Source: Christensenella sp. UBA1262 (GTDB taxonomy: Bacteria; Bacillota; Clostridia; Christensenellales; CAG-917). Taken from it: a DNA stretch of 32,556 nucleotides. Under the pieces are notes generated by a model. The model did no database searches. It was not told where the DNA came from and saw only the letters and a list, made by a program, of their open reading frames with translations. Shown one piece after another: positions 3,626 to 29,302 of the stretch. Location of the stretch: NCBI GenBank assembly GCA_002308215.1, contig DBVO01000023.1, forward strand, positions 40,754 through 73,309. Direction: 5' to 3'. Position numbers and translations under genes: made by a program. Numbering within the stretch: the first letter of the stretch is position 1; each line of letters opens with the position of its first letter.

Positions 3626-3631
3626 GGCTAA

Positions 3632-3660: not shown

Positions 3661-3761
3661 ACGCAAAATCATTGCTTTTTGTTGACTTGTATAAAACATT
3701 AAAAATTCTAAAAAAATTTTAAAATAAGCAAAGCTTATAAACCTCTCAAAATCGCCATTTT

Positions 3762-3777
3762 CCACAATAGATTGTGG
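3762..3777. promoter_or_regulatory. 16-bp palindrome CCACAAT-AG-ATTGTGG in the divergent control region (candidate operator)
   Basis: Perfect 7-bp arms with a 2-nt spacer, 57 nt upstream of the -35 of the giant-gene promoter. Statistical support is modest: palindromes of this size are expected several times per 30 kb, but only about 0.1 times in a 300-bp intergenic region. Confidence 0.3.
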
Positions 3778-3833
3778 CAAAAACAACACATGTACGCTAT
3801 ACGTTGTGTATGCGCGATTGCGAAAGTTAAGTA

Positions 3834-3861
3834 TTGACTTTTTGCATTAGAGTGCTATAAT
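3834..3861 (+). promoter_or_regulatory. Near-consensus sigma-A promoter of the giant gene
   Basis: TTGACT (3834-3839) - 16 nt spacer - TGc (3853-3855) TATAAT (3856-3861), i.e. an extended -10. Predicted TSS is near 3866-3868, giving a ~55-nt leader ending in GGAGG (3913-3917) 5 nt before ATG 3923. Confidence 0.75.
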
Positions 3862-3922
3862 TATTATGTGTAATAATCTGCACATACGCGCATAATACGT
3901 GTGTATATGCTTGGAGGAGATT

Positions 3923-4000
3923 ATGAAAAAGCAAAAATTATTGCCAATTATCTTGCTGCTAGTACTGGTAGTCATTGCAGTCATCAGTCTTGCAGCATGT
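3923..4000 (+). other. Lipoprotein signal peptide with lipobox L-A-A-C (Cys26)
   Basis: MKKQKLLPIILLLVLVVIAVISLAAC has a Lys-rich n-region and a 17-residue hydrophobic core. L(-3) A(-2) A(-1) C(+1), with TGT at 3998-4000. It is followed by a Ser/Pro/Asp-rich linker (NPSSRQSSGGRQVIDKPDTPVNPTDDDD). Confidence 0.85.
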
Positions 4001-7000
4001 AACCCGTCCTCTCGTCAGAGCAGTGGCGGGCGTCAAGTTATTGACAAGCCTGATACGCCTGTCAATCCTACTGACGATGATGATATTGCGAACGAGAATT
4101 ATATTGGTTCGCAAGAAGCGTGGAGATTGTTGAAGGATTCAGCACTTGCTGCTTCAGCACAAGGTAAAGATGCTAGATACCTCAACTTCGACACATCGGT
4201 CAATTTTGGTTTTGCCAAAGACGTGTATAATGCTCAATACGTTCTTCGTATAGCAGGCAGCATTGACACGCAATATGACAGAACACAAGGTGACTCATCT
4301 AAGCTTCTCATTGAACTCAACCGTACGACAACAAACGTGTTGCCTGATGGAACGGTTGAAATAGTAGCAGATTCAACGGGTCCAGTTCTCAGCCTCTACT
4401 ATGTAAATGAGCAGATAGTCATTGACCTTGGTGGTTTGTCAAAAGGCGCGCACGCGGTTAAGACAAGTGACATTGACCTTACAGACCTCATCGCAAAACT
4501 TGATGGCATCATTGAGAGAATAGGTATCTCAGATCTTCTTTGGGATAAGATCTTTGGTTTGAACATTGGTACAGTGCTCAAAGAGCTTGCCCATATGGAT
4601 TTGGTCAACGTGACACTTGAAGACCTCATCGTCAACTTCTTGTTTGGTGCAAACAAGAGTCGTCTTGTTGATTTGGGCGAAGGACGTCAACAACTTCAAA
4701 TTCCTTGTGATCTTTCATTGATTGCAAGTTTGTTGCCACTTGTTCAAGGCCTCATTCCAGAAGATATATTTGATCTTATTGACAGAGTTCTCGGAATTGA
4801 TCTGAGAAAGATTAGTGCACTCAGCGGTATGGCACTCTACCTCCAAGCAGAAATTACCGATGATAAGCTCACAGGCTTAAGTGCAGATATTGATGTAAAC
4901 CTTAACTCCTTCGGCAGAGATGAAGTCATTAAGAGATATGGCTTATTCCAAAATGACATTGGCATCAACCTCGGTTATACTAGCGCATCATTTAGCAGTG
5001 CTCCAGACATCGATGTTGAAGCAGTCATTAATAATAAGTATTCAGAAGGCCTTGCAAATATTGAGGAATACTCCATCCTCACTCTTGATGCAAGGGTAGA
5101 TATTAACATTAACGCAATTACAAAGACAGTCACGATCGATAATATCGTTGGCTCTTTTGGCAATTTAATTACAAATCTTCTTACAAAGTATTTGGGCGAA
5201 GATATGTACAACAGTCTCCTCCCACTTTTCGCAAAAGAAATAGACTTTAATAGAGGCACATTCAGCTTGTCATTTGTATTGCAGGGCTCTATTAACACGC
5301 GCGATAATGCTAAGACAGAAATCATAGCAGAACTACGTTCTGAAGATGGTTCTACAGCTCTTGGCATCTACTACATTGGCTCCAAGAAAGCTGTTTATAT
5401 TGACGCAAGCCATCTTCTAACAGGTGTTAAAGAAGAAGATTCTTTGGGCAATATCAGCTTTGCTGGTGCAAAATTGAAGATTGAAAACATAGACCTCAAT
5501 GCAATTATTGATAGTTTGTTTGATAAATTAGGAAACACAATTATTGATGCAATCAATAACATTTCTATTTTCCAAAATACAAAGAACGAATTAGAGGGTG
5601 CTATTGCAAATAATACAATCATTATCCCACACAATGCTATTTCATCTGCGGATGATGAACAAAAGGTTGATACAATGGCTCTCATTAATATGATTCTTGA
5701 TTGTATTGATATTGAAATGGATGGCAATATCTTTAATATTACTGATATTAAGGTTGCTCTTACGAAAGATGTTATTGATGCAATTCTCGGGCTTGTCCTT
5801 ACAGGGGATAACGCAGGAATTAAGATACCAATTACAAATATTGATCTTGTTTTCGCAAACCAAGGCGTTACTAAGGTAAAAACATTTGGATTCGATCTTG
5901 GTCTTGGCGTTACAGAACCACTCGTTTCTCTTGACCTTACAGGTCAAATCCAATTTGGTAGTATTATAGACAAGGAAACCTTCTCTAGAAAGATTGGCGA
6001 TGTCATCTATGATGACGCAAGCTATATCGGTATTATGGAAGATGGTACACTTGATATATCCAAGTTCAATATCTCACTTAGCACAGGTTTAACACTTGAT
6101 TTGCAAACACTTGAAGGAAAGATTGGCGAAATTGACATTGATCTTGGACATCTTGGCATTGCAGATGACTTCCTCGCAGGCATGTATGCAAACATTTTGC
6201 TTACACTCGGAAACATCCAAGGCGGTCTTGTGGTTAACCTTGATGCAAGTATTGATTTGTCAACTGGTCTCACTCTTGACACTCTCCTTAATTCTCAAAT
6301 TAGACTCACAATCAATAAAGCAACAAATGGCGAACAAGTAGTTTATATTTGTTTGTCTGATGGTTATATCTACATTGACTTGTCAGTCTTGATGCTTGGC
6401 GTACAAAAGGTTAAGGTCAAAGTGTCAGACATCATGAATCTCGTCGGACAATTTACAGGCGAGAGTTCATCTGATGCTCTTGCGGCTGATGATGAGGGCG
6501 GACTCCTTGGTGGCATTGATCTTGGTAATATTGATATTATCGGACTTATCGCAACTTCTCTTGGTAAGATTAAAGTTACAGATGGATTTATCGAAATTGG
6601 TCTCGCAGCAGGTCTTATTGATAAACTTTTGTCAATGATCGGCCTTACTGGTATTGATATTAAATTTGAAAAAGCAGAAGCTGATGGTGGTATTCGTCTT
6701 GCTGTACCAGACAGCCTTGATCTTGATGATTTGCAACTCGAGATTTGGCTTGCTGTAGGTAGCAACATGGACTTCACAGTTTCTCTTGATGGTTTCAAGG
6801 TTGGTCTTGTAGATGTTCCACTTGGCCCAGCAAATCCAGATGAATTTACAGATGTTTTAGATGCTCCATATGTCTCTCTTGATCTAGGTCTTGGTTTTGA
6901 CTTCTATGGTGATGAAGGAACATCAATCTTTGAACTTGGCGATGATAACAATGTCGCACTTGTTCCATTTACATTCAATGACCCAATGACTTTCAACTAT

Positions 7001-10000
7001 AAGTTGAGGGTAGCAGGCGATCTTGACTTAACACCAGTTCTTGACTATTTGTTTGGTGCAACATCAATTAACACAAACGATAACACCAGTGAACTTCTTA
7101 TTGAAATCTCTGGTTCTAAGTTTGGCGGCAACGAAAAAGTGTTGCTCGGCTTGTACTATACTGGTGGTACACTTTATATTGATGCAGAGAACTTTGGTAT
7201 AACCAAAGTTTCAACTGATATTGACTTGTATGAACTCATTCTTAATTTGTTGATGAAAGACGTCAACATAAAAATTAACGATGTTGGGCATACGGTTGCA
7301 GAAGCACTTGCAGCAGGCGACGAAGAAGATCAAGCGGCTGCAAGACGTGAAATCTTCTTTGAAGTGCTTACATTTATCCAATCAGATTATGCAAAGGTTG
7401 AAGTAACAAGGGGTATTACAGAGGCAATCTTTGAAATCTTTGGTATTGATACAAATAACGCAATTGCATATCTCAACTTTGCATGGGATAAATTTGAAGA
7501 ACATAATCATAGAAGCTTTGAATTTACAGGTGCAATTTATAATGAAAATGCACAATATGTTGGCGCTGCAACAATTTATGCAGATGATGATTTAAGCGTC
7601 AAGATTGTTAACGCACTTGAAGGTCTCTATATTAAACATAATGTATATGACAGAGATGACAATCTTGTTGTTGATGATAATGGTTTGCCAAAGGTATTTG
7701 CACTTTCAGAATATGTTCTAGCAAGCAATGTACATGGTGGATTTGATGAAATTGATTTGTTCAATTCCAGCAAAGATATTGTACTCCCAAGTATTTTCGT
7801 AGAGTTGAAGGGTACAATTTCACTTGGCGCAGCTGCAGGTAACGACGAATGGACTATAGGCGAATGGATTGCAAACTTCTTGGATGCAGAAGATAATCCT
7901 GCACTTTATACCTTCATCGGCGATTTGTTGCTCCAATACAATATTCCTTCAGATGTTGCTAGAGATTTTGGATTCCGTATCGCATTAAAGGCAAGACTTA
8001 ATCCAGAAGTTCCTATTAACCTTACAGCAAACATTAAATATGTAGAATTAACTCAAGATAACCCTTCATATACTGAAGTTTATAAACTCGTTAGAAACGA
8101 GTTCAAACTCTTGTCTGATGAAGAAAGAGCATCATTTGATGGCAAGATGTATGTTAAAGAATACTTGCCAGAGGGCATTCCTCTTGAGGAACTCAAGAGT
8201 CTCGAAGGTCTTGAAGGTGATGTAAAGGTTTATGTTAAAGTTGGCGATAATTTCAGAAAAGTTGATCCAACAAGAGTAGCAGATGGAACAAAGATGTATG
8301 TTGCAAAGAATTTGTTTGATTTAACATATATCCTTTCACACTCCGATCTCGCTATTGAAATTTACAATAAGCATATTGATTTAGTCGATGCTATGACTTC
8401 TCAAACTGAAAAGAATGCTGCAACAATCCTCGCATTGCGTCTTGTCGCTAGCGAGAATGGTTTGAGCACGCTTTATCTTGACTTCAGAGATGATTTCCAT
8501 ATGGCAATCGACAATTTGAATCTCGGAGAACTTTTGGGCAGTTTGCTTTCACTCGTTGGAAACGATGAAAAGAAAGATAATAATGCTACATCATCAGCAC
8601 TCCTTGATAACTTTGATACATCAGATTTGCTCGGAACAATTAAGGGCATTTTAGCAGGTGTTATTTATAGCATTAACGCAGACAAACAAGGCTTCAAGAT
8701 TAACTTCGCTGAGGGTCTTGTGACAATGCTTGTTAATATGCTTGCAGGAAAACAAATCCCAGCAGATCAATTTATTAAACTTAACACAGAAACAAGCTTC
8801 TTTGAGTTCTATTGGAAGTATGCACTTAATTTGAGTCTTGGGATTGATCCTCTCAAATTTGCAATTGGCTTGTCTCAATTGAAGCTTGAACTTGGCGGAA
8901 GCGCAAGCATATTACCAGATGATTTCAACAAGTCTAATTACATGACAATTGACCAATTAGACGAATTCTCCGTCAATATGGCACTTAATGTAGACTTGGT
9001 AGTAAAGAAACAACCAGAACAAATTCGCATTGAAAAGTATCTGGATGTTCTTATTGCAGATCTTGGATTGAAACTTGGTATTGATTTCCCTAAAGACCAT
9101 GACATTACTTATGGTATTGGTTTGACGCTCGGCGCAAATCTTGCCCTTAACAATGCAGAGAACACTAAGATTGTTCTTGAACTTTTGAACACAGTTGAAG
9201 ATGAGATTATAGCAGGCTTCTATATCAAAGGTTCTGAATTGTATATTGATATGGGCAAATTGTCTAAACAAGCAATTTATGTAAACAACACAGATCTTGC
9301 TGATCGTATCTGCGCATTTATTGTCGAACTTATGGGTAGAATAGGTGAGGATGCAGATGCTGTAACATCTGCTGATACAGATCCAGCGCAAGAACTTGAA
9401 ATCATGCTTAACATTGCAAATGGTAAGCTCGGATTGCTTGTTACTGAAAATGTTATCCTTGGTCTCATTGCAGCTCTTGCTGGTAATGATGAGATTGCAA
9501 ATGGTAAATCTATCACAGAAATCATTTCAGAATTTGGTCTTGATCTTTCTCTTAGCGCAGATATGGGCCTTGACCCAGTTGAGATTAACGTTGATCTTGA
9601 CAGTAGTTTGATTGAGCTTGGCATCAGAGTAGAAGATGTAGGTATTGCAACAGGTTCACACAACGCAACAAGTGATACAATTGCTGCAAAACTTGAAGCT
9701 GCAATTACTCGTCAAGACTATGTCTTGCTTACAGATGAAGAGAAGGCTGCTATTGGGGCTGATGCAACCAAGAGATATAACTATGATAGCGGTACAAATA
9801 GTTATGTAAACGATCCATATGGTGATTATCAACTAAAGGATCATTTCAAACAACAAGCAGATACTCACGTTATTACACTTGATCTTGGCATCATTGTTGA
9901 CTATAGCGCATGTGCAACATATGCTCTTGTTGATGAAACAACACTTGCAAATTACCCACTTAACGAAAGATATTCTAAGAATGTACATGATGGCAGATTT

Positions 10001-13000
10001 GTTAAAGATCCAAAGGGTCATTATGTAAGAAATGGTTTCACCTATAATGAAATTATTGAACAAATTTTAAGATTGCCAGCTCTTGCAGACATCCTTTCGA
10101 CAGCACTTCCTGTAGTTCGTTTCGGTGGTGAAAACTTTGTCTCAACAGAAACAGATGGTTCACTTACAGTTGGTGCATTGTTGCAACATCTTGGGCTTAA
10201 TGTATTCCTTGATTCCGCAATAGATGATGGTTTCTTAATTGATATTGGAATAAAGATTGATCTTGAAAAACTCGGTATCTTCGAAGAAGGAACAGACGAA
10301 TTAAAGGAAATTGATAAGATTCATATCACAGGTCCAAACATTTTGAGAGCAATAGAACTCAAGATAGAAGTTGACTTTGATTATGATAAAGCAAAACCAG
10401 CAAGTGAACACGCAAAAGTTGGTATTTACTTCGCAGATGGTGAACTCTTCCTTGACCTTTCAGGCATTGGCAGTGAAAAGATTAAGATTGAAGTTCAACC
10501 AATATTTGACTTGCTTGGATTTGATCTCTCAACATTTGATTTCTCCCTTGGATCAATCGTTGATACTGTAAAAGACGCACTTGCTTCTGCAGATGAAGAA
10601 GAGCCAGGCATTCTTGATGGTCTAGTTGATAGATTTACAGATGTCTCTGGTATTATTTCTATTGTCAACTCGGCAATTACTAGAATTCAACTTCAAGCAG
10701 AACAATGGGCAAAGAATCCATTACTCTACAAGATAAAAGACCTTAGTATCTTCTTCAGTGCAAACATTGTTAATGATTTGCTCTCACTTCTTGTTGGTGA
10801 TGAAATCTTCTTTGAATCATCTATTCTTGATGAGACACAAAGTGGTATCTTCTTCAACCTTGATGATGATTCATTCGCAGATGTTTATGCTGATGATATG
10901 TGGTCATTGAGACTCTTGTTTGCATTAGCAAACAAAGAAGATGTCAATGCTGACCCACTTGCAGAAGATAAGACATACAAGATTGATATTAAGCTTGGCC
11001 TCAACCTCGGTGTTCAATTTGAAAGCATTCAAACAGCAGAAAGCCTTGTTCCAAACAGCAAGAGACTTGAATTCATCAGCCTTGATGAATATCTTGAGAA
11101 TTTGCTTAATGTATTCAATGGCATCTACGAATGCACTTATGATGAAGAGACTGATCCAGCAGAAGATCAAATCTATTACACATTCTCAGAAAACAAAGCA
11201 GATGGCGATTACATTGTTAAGAACCGTACATTCCGCAAGATTATTCCAGGCGAAGGAATTGCCGAAGACACAATGCGTTATACACGTGGATTTGCACTTG
11301 TTAACAGCGGAATTGTGTATAATGTGAACTTCGTTCAAAATGATGAAGGCAACTATGAATATGATGCAGAAAATGATATTTATGTAGCGTACGCAGGCGC
11401 AGGCGCGAACAATAGATATAATGCTCAAATAGACGTAGCTCTTGGCGAGAATGTAAAGCTTTATAACAGAAATGATCTTGAAACATATACAGATCAAAAT
11501 ATTTCACTTAGCATAGCAGGTCTTATTTACTTCAATACTTCTGGTGTTGAAACATACAATATCGGCAACTTAGTGAGCAACCTACTTGGCGAAATGCTCA
11601 TGGAACTCAAGACTCTTGAGGCATTTAATAATGGTATTGGTTTCAAACTTAGCCTGAACCTTGACCTTGCAGCTATTGATTTTGGTGCACTTCTTGGTGG
11701 TGATTTTGATTTAATGGAATTCATCACAGAAAGTGACTTCACAAAGATTGAATTAGCACTCGAACTTATCGAACTTGATGAATATAATGCATTCAAGAAG
11801 ATTAGAAAGAGTGATGGAACTTTACAAGACAGAGTACTTGGCGGTATCTATATGAGCCATGGTTCACTCTACCTTGATGCAACAGAACTTGTTAATGTTG
11901 CTGAAAACTACTCAAGAATCGATAACTTTATGGATCTTGTAGCAGTTGTAATAGACAAAGGCAAGAATGCAATTGATTCTCTTAAGAACTTGTTTGGTGG
12001 CAGTGAAGAAGAAGCTCAAACCGCAGCTGAGAGTGAAGAAGAGATTCTTCATGATGCAATTCTCGCTCTTGTTTATAGCGATACAGCATTCCAAATTCAA
12101 ATCACACGTTCTATTATCTCACTTCTCATAGCATCAATTTTGCCAGATCTTGGTTCTATTGATGAAATCTTTGATATGTTTGATATTTCACTTAATATCA
12201 AGCATGGTGAAGAAGTCTTCTCAAAGATCTCTGACATTGAAGATGCAGAATTTAGAGCTAAGTTCGAAGACGAATATAAGGCTGATAAATATGCATATTT
12301 TGCAGATGAAGACTATAGCGAAGAAGATAATGTAAATGGTAAATATGCAGCAGCAAATATTGGTGGAATTGAAAGATATTTGCCAATTAATGTTTATAAA
12401 CTCTATCATGAGGAAACAATTGATGCTAAGACAGTAATGGTTGCCAATGAGAATAATGCGTTTATTGATGGTAAGACTAACTATATTACTTACAATGGCA
12501 CGTTCTATGAGGTAATCAATTTGCGCACAAGAAGAATTGGCTATGTCAAGGATCCAGATGTTGCTATTAGCGATGCATACTATCGTTCAACAAGATATTA
12601 CTCAAGACTTGATGAATTCTTTGTTGGCCTTGATATCGCAGTTGGCAGCATGAATCTCGGATTTGAAGTTGGTGGTATTTCCTTCGGCTTCGGCGCAGGT
12701 CAAACATTGCTTCCTGATTATATTAGAGACAGTAAAGCTCACACATATATTGACGAACATGGTGATGAGCTTGTTTACAATGCACTTGATCCAGATGCTA
12801 TTGAGCGTACTGAAGATTTGAGTACGAACCCATTCTATGACACAGTTATTAGAGTGGCATTCTCAGTAGAAATTGACTTCTCAATTACAGAAAGCATATT
12901 TGACTTCGGCAAGATATTACATAATATCTTGGGTGATATCAATGGCGTTGTATTTGAAGCTCCACATACAGCAAAGCATTTCTCTTCTGCACACTTCCGT

Positions 13001-16000
13001 CTTGATTTCAGTTTGATGTTAGATATGTATGACATCACAAATTCTGAACTCAAAGTAGAACTTATTGCTATTACTGAAACTGGCTATGAATCCAAGTGGC
13101 TCGGTCTTTACTATCTCAACAATGCACTCTATATTGATGCTGAAGAATTCTTCAACATCCCTAAAATTGCAATCAATGGTTTGAATATTAGAGACATGTT
13201 GTTCCAACTCATTGGTGAAGATATCTTCATTGACTGGGATGAAATCGGAGCATCTAGCGCAGAAGCTTTGGCTGCAGATGATGGCATTGATTTCAGCAAT
13301 AAAGAACTTGCTCTTGCAATTCTTATAAGTAAGAACAATCTTGCAATCGGTATTGGTGATAAGTTGTTTGACTATATCATTGGTCTTTTAACAGATCTTA
13401 CTAATATCGATTTCGAATCCATAATCTATACAGCAATTGATGGTAACTTGGCAGTAACACTCAATACAGAAGACGGTATTGATCTTGAAGCAGCTGCTGG
13501 CTTGAATATTGCTGGTGATAGATATAATGTCGTTGGTGATGTTGAAAATTATCATGATGAAATTCTTGCTAATTTGAAGAACGATAATGCTAAGTATTAT
13601 ATCTTCGAAGAAGAAGATCCAACACCTGGTTCACAAGCTGGTTATTATATTGAATCGGATAATGCTCAATATTATCGCGCGGTGACACCTGTTGATCCAG
13701 CAGGAAAGCGCTATGTGAGATATGAAGTTGTTCTCAACAACGCACAAGATTCATTCAAGAAGAGAATGGTTCTTGATCTTGATGAGAAGGGCATCCCACA
13801 ATATGGCCCAGAAGTTAATGTCCAAAATGCTGATATGGTATATGCATTAACAGAAGGCGATTCAGTTAATAAAGCATATGTCGCAGATGGCGGCAAATAT
13901 GATATTGACCTTAAGTTAGTACTTGGTATTCGCGATCTTGATGTACAATTCATCAATTCTAGAAACTATGCACTCACAGAGGAAGACCTTGATAAGTACA
14001 CAAGCCTCAATGACCTTGATCGTATTAGTCTCTCTGAAACAATTGAATTGGATGCAAGTTTGAAGAAGTCTGAAACAGATGAACGCGAAAACGATATCGA
14101 TCTTAGCGAACTCATCGAATACTTCTTGCCAGGTATAAGCAGTGAAGAAGTTATTACTTTGATTAGTGCAAGTTCAGATAGCGGAAAAGATGTTGACAGA
14201 AAGTTCTGGCTTACAGTAACAGTCGACATCCAACTTTCAGCACTCATGAACTATTTGCGTACAACTAAGTTTGATATGGGTACAGAAGAAGATCCAGATG
14301 CTATCACATATGTAACAAAACTTATTGATGGCATTAAAGGTTTGCTTGACGGAGGCTTTAGCCTTGATAAAGTATTGGATATTGTTCTTGACGTCGCAAG
14401 TTACATTGGTATTTCCATTGTAATTACAACACAAAACGGTCAAGAGAGAGAAAAAGGTATTGAACCTCACACAGTATTTGGTATTTATCTTGTCGGTGGT
14501 TCATATAAACTTATGTCTGCAAACGAATATGTTGAAGCTGATGATGATTATGTATCTCCAGACTTTAGATATAGCCATTACTATGAGAATAGTAAGGGTA
14601 GCTATATCTATGATGGACATAACTTTGTGTACAATCATGATCCAAATTATATTGGAACACGTTACTCATTTGACTCATCATATTGCTATAGAAACCCACT
14701 TGGCGAATATAAACGCGAAAATGGTGGTATCTATATCGACCTTAGCTATTTCAACCTCCCAAGCCTTGTTATTAACAGCAAGACAATGAGAAATCTCGTT
14801 GCAAATCTGCCAAACTTAATTGCAAGCTTTACTTCTAGCGACGCACAAGTAGCTGATGAGGATGAAGAAGAAAGCAGTGGTGGTCTTAGCCTTCCACTTA
14901 TTGATGATACTGTCAGTGAGTATCTAAAGACATTTATCTTTGGTCTTAGAATGACATCGTCCTACATTGCGCTTATGCTCAACCCAGACTATATTAACCA
15001 AATTTTGAAACTCATTGGTGGTGAAGACTTTACACTTCAATTTGGTTATGACTTTGTCAATAAGCCAGAAGTTAAGATTTATGCTGATAACCACAGATAT
15101 AAATATCTCAGCACAGATGAGATTTTAGCAGAAGTTAAGGCAGCAAAAGAAGCATATGATGTAGACCCAACTACAGAGAATCGTGATGCATGGCAACTAG
15201 CAGTTGCAGAAGTTGAAAAATTGTTCAACAACACAAGATATAGATTCACGGTTGAAAAAGTCGATGATATCGATGATGGTATGTATTGGATTGATGAGGA
15301 TGGCGCTTATGCATTGAAGACAGATATGACTGTTTCAGAGCGCAAGAATTATGATCGCGAAGTTGAAGCAGGAACCAAGTTCTATTACAACGTAAGCACA
15401 ATAGATACATACGTAAAAGTTGGTACAGATTATGTCAAATACGTTAATGCAACTACTGCTCAAATGAGAAGCGTGGAGAACAACGCACAACTATACTCAT
15501 TGTATGGTGTTACATTCCCACAACTCTATTTGCTCACAACAGATTATGAGCCAGTAGATGAAATTTTGGCAGCACAACTTTATTGTGTTGATGTTCTTGC
15601 AGAGCGCAACCCACTCATCGGTATCCAACTCTATCTCTGGAACTATGAAGTTGCACTCAATATCAAGATGCCAAACATTAAGGCTGATGAATTTATTTAC
15701 ATCACTGGCGCTGATGCAATTGCAGCTCACGTAGATGCTCCTATTGCTGCTCGTTATGCAACAGAAAGCAAAGAGCTTTTGACAGCAGTGGATAGAGTAC
15801 AAGATGGTCTCTATCAATGGAAAGCTGACTACTATACAGCAGATGCATTTGATGTAGTCAAGTACAATGCAAATCCACGTCAATATGAATATAAGAATAA
15901 GTACTACATTATCGATGGTACAACTCTCTGCACAATCGATACGGACAATAAGTACATCCCAGTTGGCGCACCAATTCCAGATTACATGTACGAAATTGCT

Positions 16001-19000
16001 GAGAATGGAGCAGTATATTATATTCATGTTCCAGATGAAGGCTACTTCAAACTTCAAAGATCATTCGTATATAGACTTACAAAATATGACCTTGATGGAA
16101 AGCGTCTATTGTCAGTTGAAGAAGCATCATCAAGCGAGTTTGAAGATCCAACATCATATTATGTACGTGACGTTCAAACTAGTGCAATTACAATCCCAGA
16201 TTTCTCAACATCAGCATATGACGCATATGCATATGATGATTTTATTGACACAGACGATGTATTCTATGTATCAATGAAACTCGCAGGAAGAATCGCATTT
16301 GAAGGCGGTAAGATGTACTTCGACTATGACAAGTACAGAACCCTTTATAATGCAGATCCACTTCATACACTTACACTTGGTCCAACAGATTTGGATATCA
16401 CAAACGATGAATGGGCAATGCTTAGATTGATCTCATTCAAGTACTTCCATGGTGACTATGTGCAAGTTACTGATAGAGCTGAAGCCAACCAACTTAAGAA
16501 AGACGGCGAACTCTTTATTTGGGCGAACTCAGAACTCGGCGAGAAATATGATGGTGTAAATGAACCATTGAACCAAGTTCTCAGCGGAATCCTTGGCAGC
16601 ATGCAAGGTTACTTCCAAGTCACAGAGAAGACTAAGATGGAAATCTTCTTCGAAATCAAACTCAATATGAGCTTTGAAATCAACTTTACACCAGCATTTA
16701 ACATCATCGTTCGTGACCTCGACCTTGCTATTGATGCTTGGGGTAGACAAGAAGATTTGAAGACAAATCCACTTACTACAGATGAAGATGATTATGAGTA
16801 TGTAACAGCAGAAGAAAGAAAGAACTATTCTGGCGAACTCTTCTATGGTTCATTGACTCACGTACTTGGCATCTACTATTCTAACGACCATGATACAGGC
16901 GAAGCTGGTCTCTATGTTGACCTTAGCTGGTTGCTTGGAAATGGTGGCAAGATCTACATTGATCTTAGCGAATATACAATTGAAGATGTTATCAGCGGAC
17001 TCGTTGGTGATTTGTTAGGAGGCAATTCAAGTGATGCTCTTGCAGCAGATGATGAGGTTGTATATCAATCTCCAGATGATGCATCACTTTATCTCAGCAT
17101 ATTCACAAATGCTCTTGCACTTGAGCTTTCAACAAGCTTCTTGAAGGTTCTTATTGCAGAACTTGCCCCAGATTCAGGCAATATTTTGGATATGCTTCCA
17201 AACGCAAAGATTTATCTCAAGCAAACACTCAATCCATATGATTTAACACTTGGCTTGTTGCTCTATAACGAAAAGGGCACAGTCCCAGTTTTGGATGTTA
17301 AGCTTCAAGTATTTGGTTTGAATGGTAATGGAACTGATGAATCTTCTTATGTCGATTTCGGTAGAGAAGAAGAATTCCGTGCTAGAGAGAATATTGAAGA
17401 ACCAAGCTACATCTTCTATTATGCAAACTTCTATAGTGATAACGAAAATGGTAACTTTGCAAAGAATGGCGTCTATAAAGGTTATATGCCAGCAAGCAAT
17501 GTTGATTTCACATTGAAGCCAGATGGAAACTATAAGAAAGTTGCAGATGAATATGTTGCTCTTTCTAGAGAAGAACTTACTTCTTATACTGGTGACAGAT
17601 ATGCAGCTAATGCATCTTATGAGAGACTCTCTCTTAGCGAGAAAGAATTCGTCCCAGTTCTTGAAAAGTCAAGATACGCTTATGGTTCAGTATGGCAAGA
17701 TCAATATAATGGATATCTCTATGATGTAAACGGCAACGTTCTCTTTGATAATCAACTTTACAGAGACATTGTTGATACAAGAGTGTTCCATGAATATACA
17801 GGTCCTCTATATATTATGAACGTGCACGAGAACAACAAGCTTGAATACGTTACAAAGCTTAATCTCACTGGCTTTACAGCTGAAGGCGATTTGCAATATA
17901 TTTTGAAGGATCAAGCACCTACTGAATTGGTCGACGCTTGTGTGGCAAATGGTATTGGCACTCTTACACTTAGAGGTGTTGAATGCTACCCAGTTGATTA
18001 CAATGGCGACGGAACTACAGATAGAGATGAAGCTGATCGTATCGCAAACAGCGTAACAGTTTACAAAGCAGTTCAAAACTTTACAGACTATACAAGAGTC
18101 GGAGCAATGAACCTCAATGATATTATTAATGGTATTTCTGGAGGCAACTTCGAAATAGCATCGTTGCTTGAAGGATTTGACACCTTTAATACAGTTGAAC
18201 TTAACCTTAACATCGACCTTGGTCTTAGACTTAAGGATGTTATCAACTGGACAAATATCATGACAGAGTTCATCGGCGATTCTGCTATAGCAGAAACAGT
18301 TTTCTTCCTTGCAACATCCTTGACAGCAGACGATCATTCATTCGAGAGTACAATTGGTCTTGATATAGCATTACATCTCTATATCAATGTCCAAAGCTTA
18401 CTCAATGCACTTATGGATGAGGATGGATTTGACCTCGTTAAAGGTCTTGAAGGATCCAAGATCTTCGCTGAAATCGTTTACAACACTAACTTCCATGGTG
18501 ATGATAAGCCAAAGATGAAGTTGTGGATAGAAATTGAAGATGGCAAGCTCAATGGTTATATTGACATGAAGGAAATTGGTGAGATTGTTGGTCTCGGTGA
18601 TTACTTCTCATATGGCCTTGTAGAAGGTGTTGATGTCAACAACCTCCTCAGCCAAGTTTCAGGTTTGCTTGGTGGACTTGGCTCAGCTTCAACAGAAGCA
18701 CTTGCGACTGCAGATGATGAAGAAATTGTTTCAACGGGTGTTCTTCCAGAAAACATTTGGAACATTGTTAATGCTATCATCGGTAGACTTCTTATCGCAG
18801 ATGACTTTGTAACAATCGGTCTTGATGAGAACCTCATGAACGGTCTTATCAAACTCCTCATTGGCGGCGACAATGATGACCTTGTTGACATCATTGCTCT
18901 CTTGCCACACCTTAGAACAACAAATGATAGAAATACATCAGGTATTACAATTAACTTCTATGGCACAGCTCCAACTATTGACCTTAACTTTGGTTGGGTA

Positions 19001-22000
19001 GTAGGAAAAGAATACGAGCTTGAAGTTTCTGAATATAATGCAAAATATGGTGTACATGGTTCTCAACACGATGGTGAAAATATAGTGGCGAACCAAGCAG
19101 GCATTGCATTTGATAGCGAAGGCAAAGTAATCGTTTCTACTAAGGAATATGCACTCAAAGGATTTGCTTATCCAAGTTGGGCTGGTGACAGCTATAAGTG
19201 GGATGGTGAAGAATTCGTTGTTGATGCAGCAGGTAAGTATTTGAAACTTGGTGACTTTAACTTGTTCGTAAGCATCTATGGATTGACAGCAGATGTCAAC
19301 AAACCATTCACTTATGGCACAGCACAAGAAACCATGATGAGAGATGAGTTTGATAACGATATTAGCGATCAATTCGTTAAGTTCGAAGATGCTCACTTTG
19401 GCATTGACCTTGCAATTGGTGTTGCAATTTATGGTAGCGGACCAGCTGGCGATGCAAATATTATTGATCTCAGCGAAATGCTTGACCTCATCCTTGGTCT
19501 CGTAGCTCCAAACAGCGCAATTTCTGGATCAACTCTTAGATTGAACATTGTTAACGAACTTGGTTATTCAGATCGTGACTTTGTAACACTTAATATCAAA
19601 GCATACATCTCTAATAACAAGTTTAATCTTGATCCTGCAAATGGTGAATTGTTTAACGTACAAGCAGCAATCACGCTTGTGCTCCACAGAGATTCTGGCG
19701 ACAAGATTCTCCTTGGCGCATATCTTGACCACGACAACGTATATCTTGATCTCAGCGAAATCCTTGGCGAAACAGCAAAGATCTCTATTACAAACCTTGG
19801 TGTTAATAAGCTTCTTGCTGAATTGTTGAGCGGCCTTGTTCAAGCAAACGATGCAAGCGAAGCAATGGCAGCAGGTGCTGATGAGATTGCTTATATCGAA
19901 AGCACAATGATGGATGTCCCATACGTCTTCATCAAGGTCAACCCAAGAAAGATCTTGCTCCAACTCAACGCAGACGTTGTCAACGCTGTCTATAAGAAGA
20001 TCATGGCAATCCGTGGACAAGAGCAAAAGAACCTTATCCCAGATATTGGTGACTTGATGCTTAAGTCATACACTGATGCAGATGGTACACACCTTAGCTT
20101 GAACCTTAGATTTAGTGATGGCTTCTATGCTTGCTTGTCTATCCCAACGCTCAAGCTCACAAAGGCAGCTCCATCAGGCCTCACAATTTCTGATGCAGAA
20201 AAACTTGAATATCAAGAAGCAATCACATCTGATGCATCAAAGGGTGGTCTCGTCGGTGGTGGAGACCTCGAAGTCAAACTTAGCACAATTGGTTTGCACC
20301 TCGGCATGAACATCACGATGACTTCTGAGAACCACTTAGAATCATCTGAGCCAGAACTCTATAATAAGAGCTTGTTTGGTTGGCTTGAAAAAACACTTGC
20401 ATCCCTCCTTAGCGGAACAGAAGCTGTAGGTAGTTTCGTTGCACTCTCTTCAGCTGAACTTGAAACATACACTGGTAAGCGCTATAAGATAGTTTATAAC
20501 GAAGATCCTCAAGGCTTATATAAGAAGAGTGGTAATAACTATGTAAGAATTGCTACAAGCACAAGTGAGTGGACAAGCACAACTCTTACAAGATATTCAC
20601 AATCTTACGTAGAAGATGAAGAAGGCACATACAAGTTTGTAATGGCAGATATGAGCTTCACATTCACATCTACGCCAATTGAAATCTTCATCGACCTCAA
20701 AGCTAACGTTAACTTGCCAGCAATTTTGCAATATGGTATTGCAGGTATCTTGTTCAGCGATTTGGCTCTTGAAATTAACATGGGCGCTCCAATTAATAAG
20801 ACGTTCATGAAGTTGTATTATCTTGGTTCTTCAAGACTTACAGATACACCAGCTGAAGGATTAAGACATCAACTTACTGCAACAGATACAGGCGTATATT
20901 CAGACGCAATCTATATTGATGCAACAGGTCTTGGACTTGGCAAGATTAAGTTCCAAGGTCTTGCAGGCCTCCTTGGTGCACAACCAGGCGGTCCAATTGC
21001 TGATGCACATACAGCATCTGAAGGAAATTCAGCAGCAGATCAAGCAGCGGCAGCAGCTGCACTCTTCCTTGAGATTAGTCTTGAGAATGGTAGAACATCA
21101 GTAACATTTGATAAGAGCCTCTTAGAGTTTGCTATTGGTCTCTTGAATCTTGATTTGCCATTCGATTTGCCAGATTTGCAATCTGTTGATTTGTCTCTCA
21201 TCTCTGATGGTGGCAACCTCAACGAAATTAACCTCAATGCACTTCTTGACACAGTCGGAACTGCAGCAAATATTCAAATCAAACCAATTACACTTGGTTT
21301 CGGATCAGGCTTCCTTGACAGAGAATCTCTTGTAGACGAAGTTAAGACAGGTTATGCTGGTATAACATACTCAAAGACAGCAGGTTTGTTCAGCCTTATT
21401 CAAAACGTTCTTGATGGATTGAATCCAGGTCTCTATATTGAAGTGCAAAACAACATCAGTGAATATGTTTCATCTGGTACAGGAAGTGTAACTTCATCAT
21501 CTGGTACTTCAAATGTTAAACTTAGACTTAACAAAGCATATAACGAAATCAAGAATGGTGAGAAACACTACATGTTGGCAGCAACTATTGTTGCAACTCA
21601 TCCAAAGGCAAGTAAGACTTTGAATGCAAGCTTGAACATCGGTTCAAACAACATTTACGTTACAGGCCTTGACTTCTTGAGTGGTCTTGGTGATGCAATC
21701 GTTGGTTGGTTGATCCCACTTGCTCTTGAAGATGACAACACTTCATTCATTGATAACTTGCTTACATGGGTAGATGACAATGGAAATGAGCAAAAAGGCT
21801 TAGTAAGAGGTATTGATGGTGATAATGGCACATGGTCATATCCAAAGAACACACCAGGCAGCAGTGGCGGCGGATCACAAGAAAAGATTGATGGTATCAA
21901 ACATACTGCTCCAGATGGAAAGACCGTAACATATAGCTATCCACTTGAACTCAAGAATCTTGTCAAGAAACTTGAAGTAAATCTCTTCAATAATAATGGA

Positions 22001-25000
22001 TATGTTCCATATTATAGTGGCATGGGCACTGTTGCGAATACCAACCGCTTCGTATCATTGCATATCGAGCTCAACCATAGAGCATACAATGAATTGTTAC
22101 TCTTCGTTTATACACTTGTTCTTAACTTGTTTAAGGATAAGATCGATGATGGCGATATAAACGGTGGTTATAAGTACTTCGTTAATAATGGTTCATTAGA
22201 GAGCACATCATGCGCTGGCGTATTGGATGGTCTTAACACAAGATATAAGACATATGTTAATAACCCAACTGATGCTAACTTTAATGCAATGGTCACATAC
22301 ATGAAGAATTACATCAGTGGTATTCCATACACACTTGAACACTTCTTGATGCAATGTGTCGTTATGCCAGCTATTAACATGAACTTGTATGGTGCAATTG
22401 ACTTGGTTGAATGGGCAGAACATGCGCTTCAAAATATCGCATCACTTATTGGTACACTCTTGCCAATCCCATTCTCAGAAGGAACATATAATCCAAATAT
22501 TAACCTCTACATTGACTTGAACCCAACTGCAGCAGATTATGGCCGCAGCGGTAAAACAATGTTGCCAGGTATTCAAGCAATTGAAATCATGGTCAACTGC
22601 AAGAAGAATGGTACTGGTACAGGTATGACAACAGGTACAAACTATTGGTTCTTGCGTATCAATCCACTTAGCGCTGAAGATTCATCAATCAAGACTGGTA
22701 TGCTTGCATTTAATGAATCTGCAGAAGCTGCTGAAACTGATATTAACCTTGGTGATGCATATATCACAATTACAGATCCAGCAACAAGAGAAGGTACACT
22801 TACTGCAAGTGGTAGCACAAAGAGCATTGAGCTCAGAGACGCGTACTTAACAGATAAGAACTACTTCCCACAATATGCGGATGTCACATTCTTGCAGAAA
22901 GATGGAGGCAACTACTTACATTCCTACAAAGAAGGTAGTTATAAAGCATCTCGTGGTACGAGAATCGTTTGGGATGCTTCATCAGTTGACCTAACACCTC
23001 CATCAGCAGAATCAAGTGAGACAAGAAGACTTGCTGGTTATGTATATGGTTATGCTCTCAACACAGTCATGTATGCAATTCCAGTCTACGTGACAGATGG
23101 TAGAACAGTTACAGACGTTAAGTCTTATACATACGATAGTGCTTCTGGTAGCTGGAAAGCTAAGAAGATTAAAGTTGATATTAACGAAAATGCAAAGATC
23201 TTCGGCAATCAATTGCCAGACTTAGTACAACTCGTATTCAATGATGGCGCTAAGATCTTCGGCACAGTCCAAGGCGGATCAGCACTCATTGGTACGAATA
23301 TTAATATCAATAATGTAACAAATAATACATTTGAGTCTACTAAGACCGAAACAGGTGTTAAGGTTTACACAACTGTTCCTGCATACACTGCAGCTCTTGT
23401 AAAGAATCCAGATGGAACATACTTCAAGTACTCACCAACAGATGACCCAGGTGAATATTATGTTGTAGATCGCAGCTTGTTGCCACCATCATCCAACTAT
23501 CCAGCTGGTATCATTACTTGGGATACAAGCAATTATAAATATGATTGGAAGGGTGCAACAGATAAATCTGGCAAACTCGAAATCAGTTATACATATCAAT
23601 GGGGCTTCAGTGCAACATGTAAGGGAACAATTGAAATTGACACAGTCAATTATGAGATTGAGACACTTAATAAGTTCTCATTCGTAAATGGATCATCTAT
23701 CAAGTCGCTTGATAATCTTGATGCATTTGCTTTAACAGCAGATCAATCAGATCTTGAGGCATACATCAACAACATTAAGACTGTAAGCGGTACAACAACA
23801 GGCAATGGCAAGATCACAAACATGAGCGTTAAGTGGGATCTCACAAATCTCAGAAAGGCAATTGCAGATCTTGGCAAAGATGCAGATAATCATACCAATT
23901 ATTACAAAGGTCTCGATGTAGAAGTAACAGCATATGTTGGCGGCGATGTATTTAAGGTCATCTCCGTAAAAACTGATGCAGAAGATGGCGGACTCCTTGG
24001 CGGCGGCAGCAGCGCAAATGAATATGGATTTGTAGGTAAAGGTTCAACAGATCCAAATTATGCAACAGCAGGCCATATTGCTCAAGCTTTCAAAGTTAGA
24101 GTAAAAGTTAAACCATACACATATGATAGTATCCCTGCAAAGGGCGCATTGGTATTTGATCCATATTCAGCAGAGCAAATCAGCGGTGCATCATTCTCAG
24201 TTGAGCGTCAAATCAACTTTAGAAATGGTACAAGAACTGCAACTCCAAAGAGTATGAATGAAAACCTCCTTTCAATTGATGCTCCATACTTCTATGTTGG
24301 TGGTGAATACATCAACGCATATGGCAATGGCCTTAAGATTGGTGATATTACTTATAACGGATATAGTGGCTCAAGACTTTATGCAAAACTTACAATAGGT
24401 ACAGCATACAGCGGCAAACAAGTTGTATATGCACCAATCACAATTAATGCATTGAAGCAACAAGTTACACCATTAAGAGTTGGACATGAAGATGTATTTA
24501 ATCCAGAGTGGTATAGCAATGTATCTGTAATCGAAAATGTCTCATTCGGCAGTGGTATCGTTCACGATATGGTGCCAGATTGGACAACAATTAAATACTT
24601 CAAAGAACAAAATGCAAAGACTCCACTTGCTAATATCTATGCAGGCGGCACAGTTTTTGCACAAGTCAAAGCATACGTAAAAGATGGCAATACAAATATT
24701 GGATGCCCGAAGGATAAAGATGGAAATGATATTCCACAAACTATTACTCTTAAACTTACTGTTGAACAACAGAAGATAACAAATGTTAAATTCTTCTATA
24801 ACAATGGTTTGCAAGGTGGCAGAGATATTTATAGCACTAAGGACGGAGCACCTCTTGTTTCAACACTTAGCGAGTCAGTCCTTAAGAACCCAGATAACTA
24901 TGTCGGTACAGTCTATGCACAAACCCATATGGTTAACATGACTGCATATGGTATTGATCCACTCAACTACGTATTGCATCCAGAAGATTACTTCAAGATT

Positions 25001-29206: not shown

Positions 29207-29230
29207 GGTCAAACAACTAAATAATTAACT

Positions 29231-29254
29231 CAAGGGCGTAGCAATACGCCCTTG
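29231..29254 (+). terminator. Strong hairpin (10-bp stem, GCAA loop) without a U-tract, 3' of the giant gene: partial terminator or 3'-end stabiliser
   Basis: CAAGGGCGTA-GCAA-TACGCCCTTG is a perfect 10-bp stem 25 nt after the stop codon. It is followed by AAAATCAAATATC, which is A-rich rather than T-rich, so it is not a canonical intrinsic terminator. Confidence 0.5.
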
Positions 29255-29302
29255 AAAATCAAATATCAATAAAAATACATACGTTTTGGAGGAAGCAACA
29301 AA

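Follow-up and report, generated by a model that had tools for sequence, protein, structure and literature searches.

The locus under study raises the question of what kind of protein is encoded by one uninterrupted plus-strand open reading frame (ORF) of 25.3 kb in the window, that is, the whole stretch of 32,556 nucleotides of DNA that was analysed, and whether the peptide motifs recurring along it form a genuine repeat. The host is an uncultured gut Clostridia bacterium. The ORF translates into 8,435 aa with an 8-codon upstream extension included; the mechanical call opens at GTG 3899 and the likely true start is ATG 3923, at whose equivalent position the relatives begin with MKK/MRK. Its main features are:

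3899..29206, plus strand: the whole giant ORF, 8,435 aa
3913..3925, plus strand: RBS GGAGGAG ahead of ATG 3923, the probable start codon
3923..4000, plus strand: predicted lipoprotein signal peptide MKKQKLLPIILLLVLVVIAVISLAA/C with lipobox L-A-A-C
4235..21259, plus strand: array of 14 paralogous beta-rich modules, aa 113-5787
21269..29203, plus strand: non-repetitive, Thr/Val/Tyr-rich C-terminal region of 2,645 aa, with Big_4 as its sole family match

The lipobox Cys (ORF residue 34, or residue 26 when numbering begins at the ATG) is followed by a flexible Pro/Thr/Asp-rich spacer of about 35-60 aa leading to the first repeat unit. Like the window protein, each of the 44 relatives that exceed 3,000 aa and have an intact N-terminus carries a lipobox, which predicts a giant, N-terminally lipid-anchored surface protein; this prediction shares the single joint grade, slightly better than even, that we give to the whole stalk reading developed below.

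Systematic profile analysis was used to establish the number and significance of the repeats. The sequence-only reading had described 13-14 ultra-diverged recurrences of a composite signature at 4388-21150 (aa 164-5751 of the ORF), and all the signature peptides quoted by it are present in the translation. An HMM of the cassette, built from 14 hand-anchored copies, returned exactly 14 copies spanning aa 113-5787 with no further copy anywhere else in the protein, and iterating the HMM over 877 instances of the cassette in relatives left the count at 14. The array thus read consists of 13 hinge-to-hinge units of 258-731 aa, in keeping with the 262-731 aa estimated earlier, and one partial unit at the N-terminus. 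Every cassette was in turn omitted from the model and scored against 200 shuffles of itself; the HMM positions and leave-one-out scores are:

4235..4816, plus strand: cassette 1 (aa 113-306; 21.4 bits)
5228..5782, plus strand: cassette 2 (aa 444-628; 18.6 bits)
6209..6754, plus strand: cassette 3, hinge SSSDALAADDEGG (aa 771-952; 41.0 bits)
7016..7555, plus strand: cassette 4, hinge AEALAAGDEED (aa 1040-1219; 43.3 bits)
8300..8860, plus strand: cassette 5, the most degenerate copy (aa 1468-1654; 8.4 bits)
9080..9607, plus strand: cassette 6 (aa 1728-1903; 32.8 bits)
10271..10843, plus strand: cassette 7 (aa 2125-2315; 34.6 bits)
11690..12220, plus strand: cassette 8 (aa 2598-2774; 32.9 bits)
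12953..13480, plus strand: cassette 9, nearest to the consensus (aa 3019-3194; 52.1 bits)
14597..15109, plus strand: cassette 10 (aa 3567-3737; 32.6 bits)
16772..17281, plus strand: cassette 11 (aa 4292-4461; 32.6 bits)
18407..18937, plus strand: cassette 12, matched by metagenomic fragment P0001 (aa 4837-5013; 31.2 bits)
19577..20125, plus strand: cassette 13 (aa 5227-5409; 30.8 bits)
20723..21259, plus strand: cassette 14, degenerate (aa 5609-5787; 9.6 bits)

Twelve of the 14 cassettes reached 18.6-52.1 bits, and the best of their shuffles 2.5-7.7 bits. Cassette 5 (8.4 bits; shuffle maximum 11.7) is inseparable from its own shuffles and cassette 14 (shuffle maximum 7.6) is barely separated from them, and the family-wide HMM recovers the two at 49 and 65 bits, respectively. 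Similarity at the DNA level is limited to imperfect matches of 31-58 nt confined to the hinge motif, so the label "ultra-diverged" is accurate; the copies are only about 20% identical to one another.

What had been regarded as a junction cassette closing each module is indeed conserved and recurrent, although it is not a separate domain added onto otherwise unrelated modules. Sequence comparison indicates that it is the best-conserved, C-terminal end of one unit together with the linker and the N-terminal part of the unit that follows. In a profile comparison by hhalign, modules 3 and 4 aligned with 99% probability and an E-value of 2.8e-17 over 224 columns, which amounts to the entire unit. 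The unit opens with a short helix, a beta hairpin and an amphipathic helix, continues through about seven long strands (9-14 residues) in which Leu/Ile alternates with Asp/Ser/Gly/Glu and then a helix, and proceeds to an antiparallel four-strand meander (S-E-L-x-[LI]-E-L, L-L-G-[IVL]-Y-Y, G-x-L-Y-[LIV]-D and K-[IV]-K-[IV]). It ends with an amphipathic helix, D-L-x-x-L-[LI], and the acidic Ala-rich linker E-A-x-A-A-x-D, whose motif over the 877 copies is carried by A94 (67%), A97 (46%), A98 (44%) and E93 (35%). A passive spacer would not usually conserve such a motif, which a stalk model leaves unexplained.

The proposal that a unit of about 270 aa was duplicated within the protein long ago and later acquired insertions is borne out by the whole-unit homology, the module lengths and the sites of insertion. 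The 729 family modules have a median length of 299 aa, with 250-300 aa as the most frequent class (344 modules), and insertions of at least 12 aa fall mostly after positions 120 and 188 of the module profile. Short modules contain 2-3% Tyr and the longest ones 7-9%; the differences in module length come largely from Tyr-rich insertions, mostly at these two loop positions. One example from the main hot-spot, profile position 120, is:

11027..11467, plus strand: Tyr-rich insertion of 147 aa (aa 2377-2523)

Further insertions after the same position occupy aa 1923-2045, 3231-3363, 5057-5147 and 5431-5523. With regard to timing, aa 590-1225 of the window protein match approximately aa 550-1170 of eight full-length clusters with E-values of 1e-18 to 1e-58, whereas paralogous modules match that segment at about 1e-9 or worse. 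Since the position of each module is preserved among the closer relatives, the duplication predates the divergence of that clade, and the alignments indicate that the array arose through tandem duplication before the closer relatives split.

The family comprises 129 representatives at 50% identity (E<=1e-3), many of them of 6,500-7,900 aa with approximately 8-15 cassettes; the full-length relatives listed measure 5,654-7,924 aa and carry 7-15 cassettes within their first 3,700-5,800 aa. Two members were traced to named records, a Clostridia metagenome-assembled genome (MAG) and the human-gut MAG UMGS814 (Clostridia/Clostridiales), and an L13 protein on the contig of one relative carries the name Clostridium sp. 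/ Clostridiales. The gene adjoins metG, tatD and ksgA in conserved synteny, which shows it to be a chromosomal core gene; its neighbours offered no functional hint for the giant protein. Sequence searches of Pfam, NCBIfam and the PDB matched the module to no entry. Judged from its sequence, the unit represents a domain family not described before, set in a protein of a familiar kind.

Structure prediction was carried out with AlphaFold, with 19 orthologues as input alongside the window protein (mean pLDDT 56.6, pTM 0.37). The model shows long beta strands, few helices and disordered acidic hinges, with pLDDT of about 30 in the hinges and 70-80 in the cassette strands, which are among its most confident parts. 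Each unit holds about 13 strands and 4 helices, the helices splitting the strands into runs of 2, 7 and 4, and the strands (9-14 residues) follow a strict two-residue periodicity with an aliphatic face opposed to an acidic/polar one. Covariation across the 792 cassette instances retained, with E32-G46 and D57-K65 as top couplings, revealed antiparallel ladders between successive cassette strands, a signal limited to local hairpins. Foldseek with this pLDDT-57 model returned no significant structural match.

The C-terminal region is collinear among the closest orthologues. Big_4 (PF07532, bacterial Ig-like domain group 4), the sole curated family detected in the whole protein, matched two stretches of it at E 5.5e-8 and 2.9e-8 in two scans; these lie outside 4388-21150, cover fewer than 100 of the 2,645 residues and are unrelated to the 14 modules. 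Beyond this weak signal no adhesive or enzymatic domain was recognised in the distal region, and its sequence contains no LPXTG motif, hydrophobic tail or other visible anchor.

Our best reading, slightly more probable than not, is an acidic, lipid-tethered stalk of 14 modules whose far end bears the C-terminal region and its weak Ig-like matches. Sec export and Lgt/Lsp lipidation would leave the protein tethered to the outside of the cytoplasmic membrane. The array, which is strongly acidic (aa 35-5790: pI 4.25, net charge -503), would then act as a long jointed stalk bearing the 2,645-aa region through and past the cell wall, where that region may contact host, dietary or microbial surfaces.

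Ebh of S. aureus is a giant repetitive Gram-positive surface protein of the fibrillar adhesin type. Giant1-5 of Apilactobacillus kunkeei are giant repetitive surface proteins as well, according to their published description (PMC12863079). Like these, the window protein runs to thousands of residues, is acidic and is predicted to be exported and cell-anchored; in it a stalk unit repeated many times in tandem is joined to a distinct terminal region, and a single gene takes a large share of a small genome. Its predicted anchor, however, is an N-terminal lipid rather than an LPXTG motif or a C-terminal transmembrane segment, so its distal end would be the C-terminus. Moreover, its repeat of about 270 aa is beta-rich and unmatched instead of Ig-like, FIVAR/GA or beta-solenoid, and its copies are about 20% identical whereas those of many adhesins are near-identical.

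An improbable alternative, though the foremost of those considered, is that the units are 14 half-barrel cups of the LolA/LppX kind, each a curved sheet with helices around a hydrophobic pocket, and that the protein binds or stores a large load of hydrophobic molecules (lipids, bile acids, glycolipids) on the cell surface. The M. tuberculosis lipoprotein LppX (2byo) obtained the highest Foldseek probability (0.90), other weak matches were the sheet-plus-helix lipid binders CD1b and nitrobindin, the strand and helix content of the unit fits such a fold, and the giant protein is itself a predicted lipoprotein. The LppX match is nevertheless non-significant (E 0.017, TM 0.14/0.34, rmsd 15 A) and derives from the pLDDT-57 model, and there was no match to LolA, LppX_LprAFG or related Pfam families at E<=10 nor any PDB sequence match. 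The window protein resembles LolA/LppX/LprG half-barrels in lipoprotein context and in an antiparallel sheet with few helices, but each of these half-barrels is one domain of some 180-230 aa that has a defined ligand cavity, as against 14 tandem units here.

Less probable still is an AsmA/TamB/VPS13-like conduit, in which the modules line up as a single, very long beta-taco and its Leu/Ile face makes an unbroken hydrophobic groove, along which lipids or other hydrophobic molecules move away from the anchoring membrane. The sequence-only reading had raised this likeness, which finds no support in Pfam, hhalign, Foldseek, the anchor type or the taxonomy of the traced members. The resemblance to AsmA/TamB (PF05170, PF13502, PF04357) lies in long, two-residue-periodic amphipathic strands with a hydrophobic face, an N-terminus at the cytoplasmic membrane, and a unit ending in a strand, a D-L-x-x-L-L-type helix and a long disordered loop; the sixth element of the beta-groove unit resembles such an ending, if loosely. 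A structure model as weak as the present one also leaves room for a continuous sheet. Unit size and strand count differ, however, with runs of 2, 7 and 4 strands between helices rather than five-strand units. No AsmA, AsmA_2, TamB/DUF490 or related Pfam family matched the window protein or 19 relatives at E<=10; hhalign of the cassette family against TamB, itself a shallow alignment, gave 0.14% probability, and no TamB, VPS13, ATG2 or Lpt structure occurred among the 50 PDB Foldseek matches listed. Instead of a transmembrane helix that runs on into the sheet, the N-terminus has a lipobox and flexible spacer. At the C-terminus there are weak Ig-like signals and no domain recognisable as one for docking to a membrane or a partner, and the most conserved residues (Y48, Y55 and D57, together with K65 and E32) are located on the polar face and not on the aliphatic one. 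The two traced members are Clostridia/Clostridiales, a group that normally lacks a second membrane to which a bridge could run, the single-membrane envelope type being taken from taxonomy.

It is very unlikely that the product is a polyprotein precursor cut at the hinge E-A-L-A-A-x-D into about 14 beta-rich proteins, which would then assemble at the cell surface. In its favour, A-x-A is similar to a cleavage motif of the signal-peptidase type, and the hinge follows an amphipathic/hydrophobic helix and a run of small residues, lies in a predicted-disordered segment yet keeps its motif across the 877 copies, and is the sole part of the repeat similar enough for detection at the DNA level. This support is purely motif-based, though; no protease gene is conserved beside the giant gene, only the first fragment would stay anchored once cut, and the module order kept in closer relatives is easier to explain with an intact chain. 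Lastly, that there is no true repeat and that the motifs are a chance outcome of Leu/Asp/Gly-rich composition deserves next to no credence, for although the unit has a simple composition, its consensus being rich in L, D, G and S, and cassettes 5 and 14 fall near shuffle level, it is refuted by the leave-one-out scores (12 cassettes at 18-52 bits against <=8 for shuffles), the whole-unit hhalign result (E 2.8e-17) and positional orthology (877 instances in 129 representative proteins, with order kept in closer relatives).

Two signals flank the giant gene:

29229..29256, strand unspecified: G+C-rich hairpin with a 12-bp stem, 23 nt past the stop codon, possible terminator
3834..3861, plus strand: promoter-like site TTGACT-16 nt-TATAAT upstream of the gene, by consensus match only

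The scan assigned the hairpin to the minus strand, and its role on the plus strand is only our inference. The promoter-like site agrees with the consensus at 11 of 12 positions and has a TG preceding the -10 hexamer.

One unbroken open reading frame on the plus strand (3899..29206, 8,435 codons) was obtained by translation of the window, and the stretch 4388-21150, where the sequence-only reading had seen a signature recurring 13-14 times, corresponds to aa 164-5751 of this giant ORF. Every peptide quoted in that reading was found in the translation. Anchoring on the L-Y-[ILV]-D motif yielded 14 cassettes, each a copy of the conserved signature that spans an acidic, Ala-rich hinge, and the recurrence can be set at 14, as the profile of these copies finds the 14 and no others in 8,435 residues; a profile iterated over 877 instances from relatives also finds 14. 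When a profile of 13 cassettes was used to score the left-out copy together with 200 shuffles of the same copy, 12 of the 14 cassettes reached 18.6-52.1 bits (shuffle maximum 7.7 bits). The weak cassettes 5 and 14 gave 8.4 and 9.6 bits vs shuffle maxima of 11.7 and 7.6, and reach 49 and 65 bits with the family-iterated profile. A chance or compositional origin of the repeats is excluded. The copies have diverged to ~20% identity, yet their order and the Tyr/Asp signature are kept, and hinge-to-hinge spacing ranges from 258 to 731 aa. Matches between copies at the DNA level are imperfect, 31-58 nt long and located over the hinge motif only, which argues against any recent duplication in the array.

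The cassette had been taken for a stand-alone junction element, a view that has to be given up since the whole unit is homologous: hhalign matched profiles built from orthologues of module 3 (aa 590-861) and module 4 (aa 862-1137) along the full length of both units, at 99.0% probability and E 2.8e-17 over 224 columns. It follows that a cassette straddles two units: it opens with the well-conserved beta meander and helix at the C-terminus of one unit, runs through the acidic linker and takes in the helix-hairpin-helix with which the next unit begins. Among 729 delimited modules of the family the median length is 299 aa, the commonest class being 250-300 aa (344 modules). Insertions, mapped by aligning the modules of the giant protein to the 269-position unit profile and counted at >=12 aa, lie mostly after profile position 120, where modules 7, 8, 10, 13 and 14 carry 123, 147, 133, 91 and 93 aa, with a second hot-spot after position 188; modules 9, 11 and 12 had a large N-terminal block left unaligned, and the insertion points come from the other modules. 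Tyr content rises from 2-3% in short modules up to 7-9% in the longest. Whole-unit alignment, module lengths, insertion positions and Tyr content together support the ancient duplication followed by insertions that had been proposed from the sequence. The Tyr-rich insertions sharing short motifs (aa ~1950-5580) are as follows.

9665-10033, Tyr-rich insertion
11027-11467, Tyr-rich insertion
13589-13987, Tyr-rich insertion
14495-14719, Tyr-rich insertion
17559-17650, Tyr-rich insertion
20189-20467, Tyr-rich insertion

Within such insertions G/T-x-[RK]-Y-x-[YF] occurs 16 times (5.9 +/- 2.5 in shuffles) and [DNE]-x-x-G-x-Y 12 times (3.6 +/- 1.9), and L-[ST]-x-E-E-x3-Y-x-G-x-R-Y begins several of them (aa 1405, 4555, 5516). 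Strings such as TKRYNYDSGT and DPYGDY are reminiscent of YD/RHS hairpin repeats; the insertions gave no match to Pfam RHS_repeat.

Only through the hinge can the repeat be recognised in the DNA, where the longest match is 58 nt at 74% identity (6440-6497 vs 17000-17057). The hinge motif, E-A-[LVM]-[AT]-A-A-D, is kept in a linker that is predicted disordered, one Ala being present in 67% of 877 copies, and its A-x-A is similar to a signal-peptidase-type site. Linker motifs are centred at the following positions.

6479, hinge centre
7307, hinge centre
10580, hinge centre
13268, hinge centre
14846, hinge centre
17039, hinge centre
18701, hinge centre
19865, hinge centre

Single-sequence AlphaFold prediction of aa 764-1221 gave a pLDDT of 37, and with an alignment of 19 orthologues the best model of aa 590-1225 had a mean pLDDT of 56.6 and a pTM of 0.37. 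In this latter model the unit runs as helix, two-strand hairpin, helix, about seven strands of 9-14 residues, helix, four strands and helix, so that strand runs of 2, 7 and 4 lie between helices, the last four strands being the cassette meander; each unit is closed by the acidic hinge, 14-46 residues at pLDDT ~30. The cassette strands and the unit start are the most confident parts (pLDDT 70-80). The family consensus is two-residue periodic (e.g. L-D-L-S-L-E-G-E-L-D-L-E-L), leaving one face aliphatic and the other acidic or polar.

Mean-field covariation over 792 cassette instances (effective number 521) revealed antiparallel ladders of constant i+j between successive strands, the strongest couplings being E32-G46 and D57-K65 (cassette-profile positions). 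The most conserved cassette residues, Y55 (83%), D57 (70%) and Y48 (69%), share a face with E32, G46 and K65 and not the Leu/Ile face, and we infer that both sheet faces are engaged at the junction. To tell contacts within a module from contacts across the hinge, long-range covariation was computed for whole modules and also for columns joined from the preceding module, the cassette and the following module; the maximal couplings, 0.84 within and 0.89 between modules, barely exceed the 0.77 of the negative control. Individual long-range pairs, such as cassette 59-142 and module 44-239, failed to replicate and were dropped.

The proposed search of metagenomic proteins with a cassette HMM did disclose a family. 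When the 14-copy profile was run exhaustively with HMMER against 1.84 billion representative proteins, 129 passed E<=1e-3, of which 66 also passed E<=1e-10 and 18 passed E<=1e-30. This search was used in place of a word-indexed search with the cassette profile, which yielded one fragment only because common Leu/Gly-rich words saturate its candidate list. Among the full-length members listed, lengths are 5,654-7,924 aa with 7-15 cassettes within the first 3,700-5,800 aa. The segment aa 590-1225 is collinear with ~aa 550-1170 of eight full-length clusters (E 1e-18 to 1e-58), while in more distant members the match is weaker (1e-13 and below) and paralogous modules reach ~1e-9 or worse; as collinear modules match better than paralogous ones, the module order is older than the divergence of the closer relatives.

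As to sources, MDE6059947.1 (GenBank) is a 'hypothetical protein' from a Clostridia MAG, and a scan with a relative's sequence located another member in a single genome, the human-gut MAG UMGS814, labelled uncultured Clostridiales; a GTDB genome scan with the giant protein's own segment gave no match. The contig of a third member also carries a ribosomal protein L13 that its sources name Clostridium sp. or Clostridiales, and this L13 protein is found on at least 1,000 contigs, the longest of 1.66 Mb. Literature searches on the giant-protein family, its accessions and AsmA-like proteins in single-membrane Firmicutes returned nothing relevant.

The signals at the two ends of the giant gene are listed here.

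3834-3861, promoter-like site TTGACT-16-TATAAT upstream of the giant gene
before ATG 3923, ribosome-binding site GGAGGAG of the giant gene
29229-29256, G+C-rich hairpin with a 12-bp stem, 23 nt past the stop of the giant gene, scored by the scan as a minus-strand terminator

The mechanical GTG start at 3899 is probably eight codons too early, and ATG 3923 is favoured by the ribosome-binding site and by the N-termini of relatives; public gene calls for the family may accordingly be 5' over-extended. The deposited family fragment P0029 reaches still further upstream than GTG 3899 (window 3899-3922). Read from ATG 3923, the N-terminus is MKKQKLLPIILLLVLVVIAVISLAAC, a typical lipoprotein signal with lipobox L-A-A-C. 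Judged by a positive n-region, a hydrophobic h-region and [LVI][ASTVI][GAS]C ~15-35 residues from the start, the giant protein has the sequence features of a bacterial lipoprotein (Lgt/Lsp substrate), and lipidation is predicted. An equivalent lipobox is present in all 44 N-terminally intact relatives of >3,000 aa. A spacer rich in Pro, Thr, Asp and Ser directly follows the lipobox Cys, and inspection of the C-terminus found neither an LPXTG motif nor a hydrophobic tail. Since no sizeable minus-strand gene ends at the hairpin, it may serve the giant gene or both directions.

The remainder of the protein beyond the array is one region.

21269-29203 (aa 5791-8435), C-terminal region of 2,645 aa, Thr/Val/Tyr-rich and of a composition unlike the array

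It is likewise collinear in the closest orthologues, in which aa 5800 to ~6700 and 7850-8435 are conserved and aa ~6850-7850 occur in some only; the more distant cassette-bearing members gave no significant match to it. A homologue search with the conserved C-terminal 586 aa returned only two unnamed fragments, and neither sequence relatives in the PDB nor, by BLAST, repeats within the region were found. A weak Big_4, located here, is the only curated domain in the giant protein. The DNA of this region has a higher AT skew.

Compared with known families, the first 5,700 residues gave no Pfam match at E<=0.1 and no NCBIfam match at E<=1, and 19 two-module segments from different members shared no recurring Pfam family at E<=10. 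Of two profiles searched against all PDB sequences, one had a best E of 0.4, to Lpp, and the other was without any match. Foldseek of the pLDDT-56.6 model retrieved nothing from the PDB at E<=1e-3, and the one match below that threshold among viral structures (BFVD; E 7.9e-4, probability 0.23, TM <0.1) is not meaningful. Beta-solenoids, with ~20-30-aa coils and parallel stacking, differ from the ~270-aa unit with antiparallel ladders, and no Pfam solenoid family was found in the giant protein or the 19 segments of relatives. With fibrillar adhesins, a functional class and not a homologous family, the likeness is partial: the giant protein has an export signal, an anchor and tandem stalk-like repeats, and where adhesins bear a distinct binding region it has a conserved distal region in which no adhesive domain beyond the weak Big_4 is recognised. 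A giant, repetitive, anchored surface protein is a familiar kind of protein. Undescribed in the libraries and literature searched are its repeat unit, the use of an N-terminal lipid anchor by so large a protein, and the extreme divergence with preserved order and a conserved linker motif.

The array is strongly acidic (pI 4.25, net charge -503) and probably acts as a long jointed stalk; its charges would repel one another and the anionic polymers of the wall, and so favour extension. Beyond the wall, such a stalk would display the C-terminal region together with the loop insertions rich in Tyr, and these may contact host, dietary or microbial surfaces.

Ligand cups of the LolA/LppX type, strung in a chain, are an unlikely alternative to this stalk. 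As to their fold, an unclosed barrel of ~11 strands with a helical lid, the highest-probability Foldseek match of the low-confidence model was lipoprotein LppX (2byo; probability 0.90, E 0.017, TM 0.14/0.34, the latter on the target, rmsd 15 A), and after it came other sheet-plus-helix proteins. No match to the LolA or LppX_LprAFG profiles was found in Pfam at E<=10, and none to their solved members among PDB sequences.

A repeating-groove conduit, the use suggested by a likeness to AsmA/TamB proteins, is quite improbable. That likeness was not borne out: AsmA (PF05170), AsmA_2 (PF13502), TamB/DUF490 (PF04357) and PF27051 were absent in Pfam searches of the whole protein at E<=0.1 and of the 19 two-module segments at E<=10. 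By hhalign, the 877-instance cassette profile and E. coli TamB gave a probability of 0.14% over one aligned column, a weak test as the TamB alignment is shallow (Neff 1.1), the retrieved sequences being nearly all ~89% identical and enterobacterial. TamB, VPS13, ATG2 and Lpt were absent from the 50 Foldseek matches listed. AsmA/TamB proteins have an N-terminal transmembrane helix in the donor membrane, whereas the giant protein has a lipobox Cys and a flexible spacer; they have a second membrane to reach, whereas its named sources are Clostridia/Clostridiales, with the envelope inferred from taxonomy; their continuous beta-taco, open along a hydrophobic groove, is built of five-strand units with a crossing loop, unlike the 2, 7 and 4 strand runs of the pLDDT-56.6 model; and its C-terminus shows weak Ig-like signals only. 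Membership is unsupported by curated profiles, profile-profile comparison, fold search and architecture. With a model of such low confidence, a groove-like mode of action of the array keeps a small probability.

We attach very little likelihood to the proposal that the 14 modules make up one continuous Leu/Ile-lined beta-sheet channel or groove of >100 nm, membrane-tethered and with the acidic hinges as crossing loops, which carries hydrophobic molecules between the membrane and beyond the wall. If true, the channel would be a structurally independent Gram-positive counterpart of the bridge-like lipid-transfer proteins, with lipids, bile acids and host or partner-cell lipids as possible cargo, and such a groove would extend bridge-type lipid transport to single-membrane bacteria. 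That the giant chain is a polyprotein, cut at the conserved E-A-L-A-A-x-D hinge, is hardly credible.

Whichever its role, the giant gene has been kept at full length in a clade of uncultured gut Clostridia, with the order of its modules unchanged, and is for this reason likely to shape strongly how these cells appear to their environment; at 25 kb it would take up ~1.5% of the genome, were this close to 1.6 Mb, the size of the largest contigs seen for relatives. A core of 5,700 residues stands outside every curated family and without solved relative in the families and PDB searched. A new domain family could be founded on the unit (877 aligned instances, 269-position profile), through which >100 giant proteins now without a name could be annotated. 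For the study of repeat evolution the array is instructive: its copies are down to ~20% identity, yet their order is kept and the seemingly disordered linker holds a conserved motif.

The genes flanking the giant gene in the window are as follows.

66-2015, 649-aa protein with only a sub-threshold match to the GH127 beta-L-arabinofuranosidase catalytic domain (E 3e-4, 20 bits; cut-off 24.9)
2651-3625, minus strand, HGSNAT-type acyltransferase gene, immediate neighbour of the giant gene
29303-30433, Band_7_1 (SPFH) protein with three C-terminal zinc ribbons, just downstream of the giant gene
30440-31507, 355-aa zinc-ribbon protein after the Band_7_1 protein

Five of the six loci examined have a Band_7/zinc-ribbon gene downstream of the giant gene, in 4 of them preceded by Mem_trans; metG follows the Band_7/zinc-ribbon gene in those four of the five whose contigs are long enough, and tatD and (in 2) ksgA lie beyond. 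This shared downstream synteny indicates a chromosomal core gene and not a mobile element. The Band_7_1 and zinc-ribbon pair, missing behind the giant gene in the most distant of the six loci, is probably inherited synteny. The neighbourhood was rejected as a functional clue: the synteny breaks down at the most distant locus examined and looks like plain inheritance within a narrow clade. Upstream, a PIG-L deacetylase gene adjoins the giant gene in 4 of 6 loci (L003, L004, L008 and L009, including a distant one of the type of family protein P0022), with a GH20 hexosaminidase gene nearby in 3 of the four. Both genes are absent from the window, having been lost in its lineage, and it is owing to this loss that the HGSNAT-type gene adjoins the giant gene. 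A bPH_2 protein comes after the 649-aa protein, and the two stay near the giant gene in the closest relatives, on the opposite strand in L003.
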